From NCBI RefSeq assembly GCF_003334315.1, contig NZ_QOWR01000024.1: a stretch of DNA of 64,000 nucleotides; one strand, 5' to 3'. The stretch comes from Escherichia coli (lineage in GTDB: Bacteria; Pseudomonadota; Gammaproteobacteria; Enterobacterales; Enterobacteriaceae). A program made the translations under genes and the position numbers. Below the pieces are notes generated by a model, which saw only the letters and a program-made list of their open reading frames with translations, was not told where the DNA came from and did not search any database. Below are positions 63,247-64,000 of this stretch, piece by piece. The first letter of the stretch is position 1. Each line of letters starts with the position of its first letter.

Positions 63247-63471
63247 TCTTTCCGCGTCTCATCTTTATCGGTGAGACGCACCCTCAAAATTTCTCCTTCA
63301 CTCTATAGTCTTTTCGCTTTACTCCCGTTCATTCAACTTAAGTCTCCATTTTTTTGCATTACTACTATCTGTTAGACCTCCATTCTTCTGTTGATAAAAC
63401 ACTCTTTTTGACGTTTTTACAGACTAATTGAACGTGAAGTGTGCAAACGATAAAAGTGTAGGAAAAATTGT

Positions 63472-63499
63472 TTGACTTATAAGTCTCAGAAAGTAATAT
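63472..63499 (+). promoter_or_regulatory. Candidate sigma70 promoter for serV-argV tRNA operon
   Basis: TTGACT (63472-63477), 16-bp spacer, TAATAT (63494-63499), followed by GC-rich discriminator GCGCCACGC. Confidence 0.45.
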
Positions 63500-63561
63500 G
63501 TGCGCCACGCAGCGACGATGAGCGATAAACAAGTTCTTCGAAGCACTCGTAAGAGGCGTGT

Positions 63562-63654
63562 GGTGAGGTGGCCGAGAGGCTGAAGGCGCTCCCCTGCTAA
63601 GGGAGTATGCGGTCAAAAGCTGCATCCGGGGTTCGAATCCCCGCCTCACCGCCA
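63562..63654 (+). tRNA. serV: tRNA-Ser (anticodon GCU), 93 nt with long variable arm
   Basis: GGTGAGGTGGCCGAGAGGCTGAAGGCGCTCCCCTGCTAAGGGAG...CGCCTCACCGCCA; anticodon loop CT-GCT-AA; encoded CCA. Confidence 0.95.
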
Positions 63655-63657
63655 TTT

Positions 63658-63734
63658 GCATCCGTAGCTCAGCTGGATAGAGTACTCGGCTACGAACCGA
63701 GCGGTCGGAGGTTCGAATCCTCCCGGATGCACCA
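63658..63734 (+). tRNA. argV: tRNA-Arg (anticodon ACG), 77 nt
   Basis: GCATCCGTAGCTCAGCTGGATAGAGTACTCGGCTACGAACCGAGCGGTCGGAGGTTCGAATCCTCCCGGATGCACCA. Confidence 0.95.
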
Positions 63735-63849
63735 TATTCTACGTACTTTCAGCGATGAAGGTATGGAAGAGGTGGCGGTAATAACCGCAGGCACCAGGGA
63801 GGATAACGTTGCTTTAGCAACGGCCCGAAGGGCGAGCCGCAAGGCGAGT

Positions 63850-63868
63850 AATCCTCCCGGATGCACCA
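63850..63868 (+). other. 19-nt exact copy of tRNA-Arg 3' end in inter-tRNA spacer
   Basis: AATCCTCCCGGATGCACCA identical to the 3' end of argV (63716-63734). Confidence 0.8.
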
Positions 63869-63932
63869 TCTCTTACTTGATACGGCTTTAGTAGCGGTAT
63901 CAAAAAATCTGCAGTAAAGTAAGTTTCCCGAT

Positions 63933-64000
63933 GCATCCGTAGCTCAGCTGGATAGAGTACTCGGCTACGAACCGAGCGGTCGGAGGTTCGAATCCTCCCG
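63933..64000 (+). tRNA. argY: Second tRNA-Arg (ACG) copy, truncated by window end
   Basis: Identical to the first 68 nt of argV; window ends inside the T-arm. Confidence 0.9.

Follow-up and report, generated by a model that had tools for sequence, protein, structure and literature searches.

A copied tRNA-Arg 3' end in the argV-argY spacer of Escherichia coli read as the terminus of the tRNA-linked repeat raV

The spacer between the tRNA genes argV and argY of Escherichia coli carries an exact copy of the last 19 nucleotides of argV, and the locus raises the question of whether such a copy is the scar of a mobile element, a relic of recombination within a tandem tRNA array, or part of an element in its own right. 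An earlier note on this DNA had pointed to integrase-mediated insertion or excision at a tRNA gene and, as an alternative, to unequal recombination among the tRNA copies. We consider it very probable that the second 19-mer is the 3' end of raV, a tRNA-linked repeat (TLR) that would be released by RNase E as an RNA of approximately 134 nt and that is precisely lost or duplicated through a 20-bp direct repeat. The window, which is the whole 64-kb stretch of DNA analysed here, ends within the operon, and its relevant features are as follows.

Upstream of serV, near the window end: csrA
63562-63654, + strand: serV, tRNA-Ser(GCU), the first gene of the operon (ARAGORN; Rfam tRNA, 56.8 bits)
63658-63734, + strand: argV, tRNA-Arg(ACG) (ARAGORN; Rfam tRNA, 67.1 bits)
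63735-63932: argV-argY spacer, 198 nt, consisting of a 134-nt unit and a 64-nt basal spacer
63735-63868, + strand: the 134-nt tRNA-linked repeat (TLR raV), starting one base past the argV CCA and closing with the CCA of the copied 3' end
63869-63932, + strand: basal spacer, 64 nt, which directly follows the tRNA in strains without the unit
63933-64000, + strand: argY, a second tRNA-Arg(ACG), cut by the window end (Rfam tRNA, 50.8 bits, 3'-truncated)

The 19-mer AATCCTCCCGGATGCACCA is present exactly twice in the window, as the last 19 nt of argV (63716-63734) and at 63850-63868, and the two copies are identical at 19/19 positions, just as the earlier note had reported. No further match was found in the 64 kb at up to two mismatches, and 100 dinucleotide shuffles yielded none. 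Identity continues for 0 nt on the 5' side and for one nt (T) on the 3' side, making the direct repeat 20 nt long, and 115 bp separate its copies. No other copy of the unit was found in the window. The string comprising tRNA, unit and spacer occurs verbatim in E. coli K-12, and the argV and argY labels therefore fit.

Several smaller observations concern the same region. The lone sigma-70-like match in the region lies at 63472-63499 (+ strand; TTGACT-16-TAATAT), about 60 nt upstream of serV, a position that agrees with the long serV leader described in PMC7049720; Mohanty & Kushner 2020 treat only the serV leader. No terminator-like site was detected in 63250-64000, and a terminator or attenuator reading of the spacer was dropped on that ground. 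Antisense calls at 63678-63749 and 63658-63732 (both - strand), comprising a tRNA-Arg(tcg) over argV from ARAGORN and sub-threshold Rfam matches to Plastid-ycf2 and psbI-rps4 opposite the tRNAs, are artefacts of tRNA self-complementarity. A literature search by the gene names argV/Y/Z/Q returned nothing about the spacers.

The element, which the earlier note did not recognize as a member of a catalogued family, is already known, and it is raV as catalogued for K-12. Stenum et al. 2021 (PMC8144298) trace the discovery of TLRs to Egan & Landy 1978 and the catalogue to Rudd 1999; they place 22 TLRs at ten loci in K-12, all sharing a 3'-terminal stretch of 18-19 bp that exactly repeats the 3' end of whichever tRNA or rRNA gene lies upstream. 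The supplement to that paper lists raQ/Z/V alongside argY/Z/Q and includes a strain (TSS107) deleted for all 22 TLRs, with the entry "argY/Z/Q, raQ/Z/V". Since this description fits and the string is identical to that of K-12, we identify the window unit with raV. The unit begins at 63735, one base past the argV CCA (63734), on the same strand and ahead of argY, and thus sits in a tRNA operon directly downstream of a stable-RNA gene; its 3'-terminal 19 bp are the 3' end of that gene; and both its string identity to K-12 and the supplement listing match it to one of the 22 K-12 TLRs. Compared without the 19-mer, the unit shows 90% identity to Lys and Pro units (48-49 nt), 91% to the tyrT RtT (33 nt) and 93% to 5S units (27 nt); its 3' domain matches the Lys, Pro, Tyr and 5S units, along with the free-standing repeats described below, at 87-93% identity.

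The unit is predicted to fold strongly, with a minimum free energy of -60.3 kcal/mol (z=-5.4 against shuffled controls; -79.8 kcal/mol and z=-5.9 for the whole spacer), and its parts can be laid out as follows.

63742-63765, + strand: 5' hairpin 1 (MFE fold; alignment of 31 Arg units)
63775-63788, + strand: 5' hairpin 2, GCGG-TAATAA-CCGC (MFE fold)
63791-63804, + strand: 5' arm GCACCAGGGAGGAT (MFE fold; RNAalifold consensus)
63807-63833, + strand: family core, CGTTGC-TTTA-GCAACG and then GCCC-GAA-GGGC, invariant in 31 Arg units
63836-63845, + strand: small hairpin GCC-GCAA-GGC, with the clearest compensatory changes
63850-63868, + strand: copied argV 3' end, from T loop A58 through CCA, forming the 3' strand of the closing helix

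In the predicted fold, the 3' domain is closed by a helix between the 5' arm GCACCAGGGAGGAT and the copied ATCCTCCCGG.TGCACC, and this helix encloses three small hairpins, including both core hairpins. RNAalifold recovered the closing helix and all three hairpins from 31 Arg(ACG) units, with compensatory changes chiefly in the last hairpin, where 11 sequences carry a double change at one base pair (columns 107-109 with 116-118 of the alignment). Across the same 31 units the sequence of 5' hairpin 1 differs among genera and the hairpin is retained, while 5' hairpin 2 takes the form GCGA-AATTA-TCGC in Klebsiella.

Under permissive Rfam settings the unit aligned over its full length to RF00391, the RtT RNA of the tyrT-tyrV operon (Bosl & Kersten 1991), at 29-35 bits (29.2-34.7; E=1.8e-5 for a search on the spacer alone). 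The gathering score of that model is 45 bits, and the unit, falling below it, is classed here as a TLR rather than as an RtT member. It has the outer helix (GGGAGGAT:ATCCTCCC) and the central CGNNGC hairpin (CGTTGC/GCAACG) of RtT; the segment that builds the inner helices (CUUCG..AGGUUCGA) is missing from 31/31 Arg(ACG) units, and the cmscan alignment passes over model positions 1-45. The low score is thus explained by the absence from the Arg unit of the inner, T-arm-like RtT segment of about 40 nt. Genuine RtT units of K-12 tyrT score 134-137 bits, each ending in the tRNA-Tyr 3' end AATCCTTCCCCCACCACCA with an upstream GGGGAAGGAT that pairs with that end. The threshold is also passed by long Pro, Lys and Arg(CCG) units (73-101 bits), and no RtT match at the gathering score was obtained for Arg(ACG) units, including those of Enterobacter, or for 5S units. 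As a side observation, a short Lys unit (L012 6791-6960, - strand) reaches 56.6 bits only through a 5' part aligned to the upstream tRNA-Lys, which shows the tRNA-likeness of the 5' half of the RtT model.

The relationship between each unit and its own gene extends well beyond tRNA-Arg. Species-representative genomes were scanned for the core CGTTGC N3-7 GCAACG R CCC NN AGGG, which returned at least 167 core sites at at least 120 loci. Among the matches listed, genomes of Enterobacterales and a number of other gammaproteobacterial genomes carry the core behind tRNA-Lys(UUU), Arg(ACG), Arg(CCG), Tyr(GUA), Pro(UGG), Pro(CGG) and Pro(GGG), and each such core is followed by the 3' end of that same upstream tRNA. 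Within this set, 90/114 units are identical to their own upstream tRNA at 18/18 positions; mean mismatches in the well-sampled classes are 0.25-0.72 to the own tRNA versus 5.7-6.8 to other classes, with the exception of the Arg(CCG) units (n=4), which average 4.75. Where, again among the matches listed, a tRNA 3' end departs from its class consensus, the adjacent unit mirrors the departure in 14/14 cases. In one genome (L098, - strand), two tRNA-Lys alleles differ by a compensated change in the acceptor stem (GGGTCGT..ACGACCC in one, GGGGCGT..ACGCCCC in the other), and the Lys unit behind each reproduces that allele's 3' end; the short Lys 5' arm falls short of that position. At least 14 further sites follow 5S rRNA and end in AACTGCCAGGCAT, the 5S 3' end, with a complementary arm GGCAGTT; some of these lie between 5S and thrV or aspT and others between terminators T1 and T2. 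The same architecture also follows solitary genes such as proK-type tRNA-Pro and 5S rRNA. In effect, the survey independently rediscovered the defining rule of the TLR family.

The 5' arm varies along with the tRNA class and with species variants, as in the following pairs.

Tyr: 5' arm GGGGAAGGAT, 3' arm ATCCTTCCCC
Arg: 5' arm GGGAGGAT, 3' arm ATCCTCCC
Arg with CCTCCT in the tRNA: 5' arm AGGAGGAT, 3' arm ATCCTCCT
Arg, Hafnia: 5' arm GGAAGAT, 3' arm ATCTTCC
Lys, long form: 5' arm GCAGGATGA, 3' arm TCATCCTGC
Lys, Amphritea: 5' arm CGTATAGGAT, 3' arm ATCCTATACG
Pro: 5' arm AGAGGATGA, 3' arm TCATCCTCT

Perfect helices reach a mean maximum of 7.2 bp when a unit's arm is paired with its own copy, as against 5.6 bp with the copies of other classes, over data points that are non-independent. 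Covariation of the outer helix is strong in Tyr and Arg, weak in Pro and nearly absent in short Lys units (about 5 bp, only AGGAT:ATCCT), and a structural requirement common to all classes is for that reason not proven. A universal helix between 5' arm and 3' copy was accordingly upheld in part only, with the short Lys units as the exception.

The earlier note had suggested comparing this region across genomes for presence or absence of the fragment. We inspected 11 arrays (7 E. coli, 2 Salmonella, 2 Klebsiella), all of which (11/11) share the flanks alaS-csrA-serV and yqaB-yqaA; the only other annotated flanking genes were gshA and, in the two Klebsiella arrays, a BON-domain/osmY-like gene. 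The E. coli spacers, in nt and in array order, are these.

K-12: 198 / 62 / 198, plus a diverged unit after argQ
O157 180-PT54: 64 / 62 / 102
EC13: 332 / 197 / 198
NCCP15648: 197 / 198 / 198
19KM1776: 198 / 62 / 102
ST131: 64 / 62 / 63
AST85: 199 / 102, with three tRNA-Arg genes only

Individual spacers therefore hold 0, 1 or 2 units among E. coli strains. EC13 reads exactly as tRNA, unit, unit and basal spacer, an exact tandem duplication at the 20-nt repeat, and O157 reads exactly as tRNA, 64-nt basal spacer and next tRNA, a precise loss; the argY-argZ spacer of K-12 is a 62-nt homologue of the basal spacer. Of 5,426 complete E. coli genomes, 5,157 contain the 115-nt unique part of the unit, in 1-6 places each (median 2); no more than 3,252 genomes have a copy at least 99% identical to the one here, and 1,302 have a distant one (80-90%) only. 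All of these places (10,559/10,559) are chromosomal and none is on a plasmid. Salmonella and Klebsiella carry the unit at the same csrA-serV-arg-yqaB locus, in other spacers. No integrase or other mobile gene was seen between or next to the repeats in the 11 arrays from the three genera, and the search for integrase genes near arg tRNA loci of related strains that the earlier note had called for thus came back empty.

Some variants of the array stand apart from this pattern. A 102-nt spacer (L002 2116-2217, the O157 argZ-argQ spacer; also L131 and L132) keeps TATTCTCCGTAA and a hairpin, is without the core and the 19-mer, and passes directly into the basal spacer, which amounts to an internal deletion away from the 20-bp repeat. 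The first arg spacer of Klebsiella, 150 nt long (L006 1592-1741, L009 1464-1613), contains a diverged core, GCGCTG-TGAAA-GCAGCG-GCCCGCAGTGCGAG..GAGTCACTCTACCGATTAGGCCATCA, and no longer ends in a match to the tRNA-Arg 3' end, which suggests a unit in decay. Copies of tRNA-Arg(ACG) also vary in number, with three instead of four in E. coli AST85 (L132) and S. enterica houtenae (L007). A BLAST search of the unit against phages and plasmids returned mostly chromosomal records that had been misfiled. Partial matches to the TLR core, covering 41-66% of the unit, occur in three short records, namely H14 (OR850888.1, a 7.4-kb "Salmonella phage"), H23 (NZ_CP093469.1, a 14-kb Klebsiella "plasmid") and H27 (a 121-kb plasmid), all three of which may be assembly fragments of chromosomal tRNA operons.

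We propose that raV is a short structured module, transcribed with the tRNA operon directly after a stable-RNA gene, in which the copied 3' end and the U-rich trailer behind it would recreate the context found after a real tRNA. Because this tRNA 3' context is recreated, RNase E would be expected to cut the precursor after both CCA ends, and such cleavage would free the tRNA, an RNA of about 134 nt with a tRNA-like 3' end, and a normal argY 5' leader. Excision of raV and the normal argY leader are extrapolated from two relatives. The ends of RrB have been mapped to 3 nt after the 5S end (5') and 3 nt after the copy (3'), which supports RNase E cleavage behind gene and copy alike, and the authors of that work propose that the repeat is recognized by RNase E (PMC8144298); the 171-nt rttR annotated in K-12 stops exactly at the CCA of its tRNA copy. 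The 20-bp direct repeat, in turn, permits precise loss or tandem duplication without harm to the tRNA genes, which accounts for the 0, 1 or 2 units found in a spacer from strain to strain. Any function of raV is non-essential, given the strain deleted for all 22 TLRs and the many natural strains without the unit.

The two readings of the earlier note are best weighed against this evidence jointly. If the 19-mers were attL and attR, they would record a site-specific integration at the T loop and 3' end of argV, and what lies between them would be an element that is miniature or has decayed. The segment from T loop to CCA is the target of many tRNA-targeting integrases, and the tandem accumulation of units in EC13 is formally like accretion at an att site. 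The repeats, however, are merely 115 bp apart; no mobile gene lies between csrA and yqaB in the 11 arrays, every E. coli copy is chromosomal, and the phage and plasmid matches, the short records H14, H23 and H27 apart, are mostly misfiled chromosomes. Furthermore, the sequence enclosed by the repeats forms a conserved RNA structure with co-variation, and the integrase reading would demand a different enzyme for each of at least five tRNA classes, all copied with their own 3' ends, and another for 5S rRNA. An integrase footprint is therefore extremely unlikely. Unequal crossing-over fares differently according to what it is asked to explain. The number of units, and even of tRNA-Arg genes (3 or 4), differs by strain, and exact duplications and precise deletions fall at the repeat, such as those in EC13 and O157; as a description of copy-number dynamics, it stands. 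As an account of origin, in which the fragment would be a plain truncated tRNA 3' end with no identity of its own, it is refuted by homology across classes: the sequence 5' of the 19-mer is neither tRNA nor ordinary spacer but a module common to Lys, Pro, Tyr and 5S units, the architecture recurs at solitary proK-type and 5S genes, and the module is conserved at this locus in Escherichia, Salmonella and Klebsiella. We judge that the plain relic is very unlikely.

Two further explanations concern what the unit may have been or may encode. It could descend from a tRNA-Arg pseudogene that lost its D and anticodon arms and gained a hairpin insert in the T loop, leaving the 19-mer as its 3' remnant. 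The 5' arm, GCACCAG+GGAGG, agrees in register at 10/12 positions with the acceptor 5' strand plus T-stem 5' strand of tRNA-Arg (GCATCCG+GGAGG), long units of other classes keep NNAGGTTCGA (the T-stem 5' strand and half of the T loop) upstream of the core, and 5S units keep a 5S-like piece, GAGAGTGGGAC. Against this, neither ARAGORN (+ strand) nor the Rfam tRNA model (E<=10) detects a tRNA in the spacer, and the continued identity of the copy to the neighbouring gene is left unexplained. Such descent is a possibility that we hold doubtful; it bears on origin only and is compatible with the TLR explanation. A small-protein gene analogous to tpr, the "protamine-like protein" inside the tyrT repeat, has next to no probability. 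The annotation of tpr within rttR in K-12 offers a precedent, and the window unit does contain short ATG ORFs, MKVWKRWR and a 42-codon frame, but no ORF is conserved in Salmonella or Klebsiella, or even between arg units within a single E. coli genome (MKVWKRWR versus MKVSKR), and conservation follows the RNA stems rather than codons.

The core also occurs apart from stable-RNA genes. Outside Enterobacterales, the TLR core is found in a free-standing intergenic repeat of approximately 75 nt with three hairpins, laid out as AAAAAA-TCGCCGGGAGCGA-TTTTT-AACGTTGCnnnnGCAACG-GCCCGnAGGG-TGGCCGCCAGGGATGGCGGCCA-TAAAAA (L121 10598-10830, - strand; L065 6387-6520; L122 4016-4180; also L058, L059, L061-L064, L035/L042, L106 and L108). 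It occurs singly or in 2-3 tandem copies, not beside tRNA or 5S genes, has no Rfam match at the gathering score, and is present in intergenic DNA of Alcanivorax, Marinobacter, Pseudomonas and Stenotrophomonas; the rrnB-type 5S TLR has the same three hairpins. Since the copy tracks the allele of its neighbour (14/14) and the core occurs free-standing, we leave room for the idea that TLRs are made or kept current by a cis-acting process at the level of DNA and are not passive relics, although we regard it as unlikely. One possible form of such a process is a dispersed hairpin repeat that inserts at stable-RNA 3' ends with a target duplication of about 20 bp, and another is that gene and copy exchange short tracts by conversion; set against both stands selection acting only on the RNA.

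As a discovery, the second 19-mer matters little, for it is the defining feature of a catalogued family. TLRs have no known function, and the one phenotype reported for a tRNA-operon TLR, that of rtT, was retracted (PMC8144298). The chief value of these observations lies in annotation. Arg(ACG) and 5S members escape both the RefSeq records examined and the Rfam RtT threshold: the RefSeq/PGAP records (L001-L004, L130-L133) have no feature for the arg-spacer TLRs, and NC_000913.3 annotates rttR and tpr alone, at tyrT. As long as these TLRs go unannotated, tRNA 3' fragments at such loci will keep being misread as integration scars. The cis concordance of gene and copy, the class-specific 5' arms and the copy-number polymorphism among 5,426 E. 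coli genomes may also help in the design of experiments.

Finally, raV can be set beside known systems. It shares with the attL/attR sites of tRNA-integrating elements the direct repetition of the 3' part of a tRNA gene, but it has neither integrase nor cargo, the repeats enclose a conserved RNA module of 115 bp, and 5S rRNA is followed by elements built the same way. The resemblance to 3'ETS-leuZ and other spacer-derived RNAs of tRNA operons lies in the proposed release, such RNA being freed from a tRNA precursor by tRNA-processing nucleases (PMC8144298); 3'ETS-leuZ acts by base-pairing with RyhB and RybB, has no copy of a tRNA 3' end and is not a repeat family. RrA, RrB and RrF, the sRNAs between the dual terminators of rrnA, rrnB and rrnD (PMC8144298), belong to the same TLR family, with the central hairpin and GCCCGNAGGG as in raV and an ending copied from the 3' end of the upstream gene, but they follow 5S rRNA, carry the copy AACTGCCAGGCAT and are reached only by read-through of terminator T1. 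These three bind Hfq and CsrA in vitro, and the 19 tRNA-operon TLRs score below 0.01 in a CsrA-binding predictor (PMC8144298). RtT/rttR has the same core as the Arg unit (AACGTTGC..GCAACG-GCCCGAAGGGCGA..CGAGTAATCC), the same closing helix between 5' arm and copied T-stem 3' strand, and the same ending in the CCA of the host tRNA; its inner segment, GAGAA-CTTCG..AGGTTCGA-CTCGAGCG..GCGAGAG, is missing in the Arg unit, which carries the tRNA-Arg end where RtT carries that of tRNA-Tyr and has no tpr-like ORF. The latest version of the CoCoNuT preprint has no text on RtT. With the K-12 TLRs raV, raZ and raQ, the window unit agrees in all tested features, and it is the same element.
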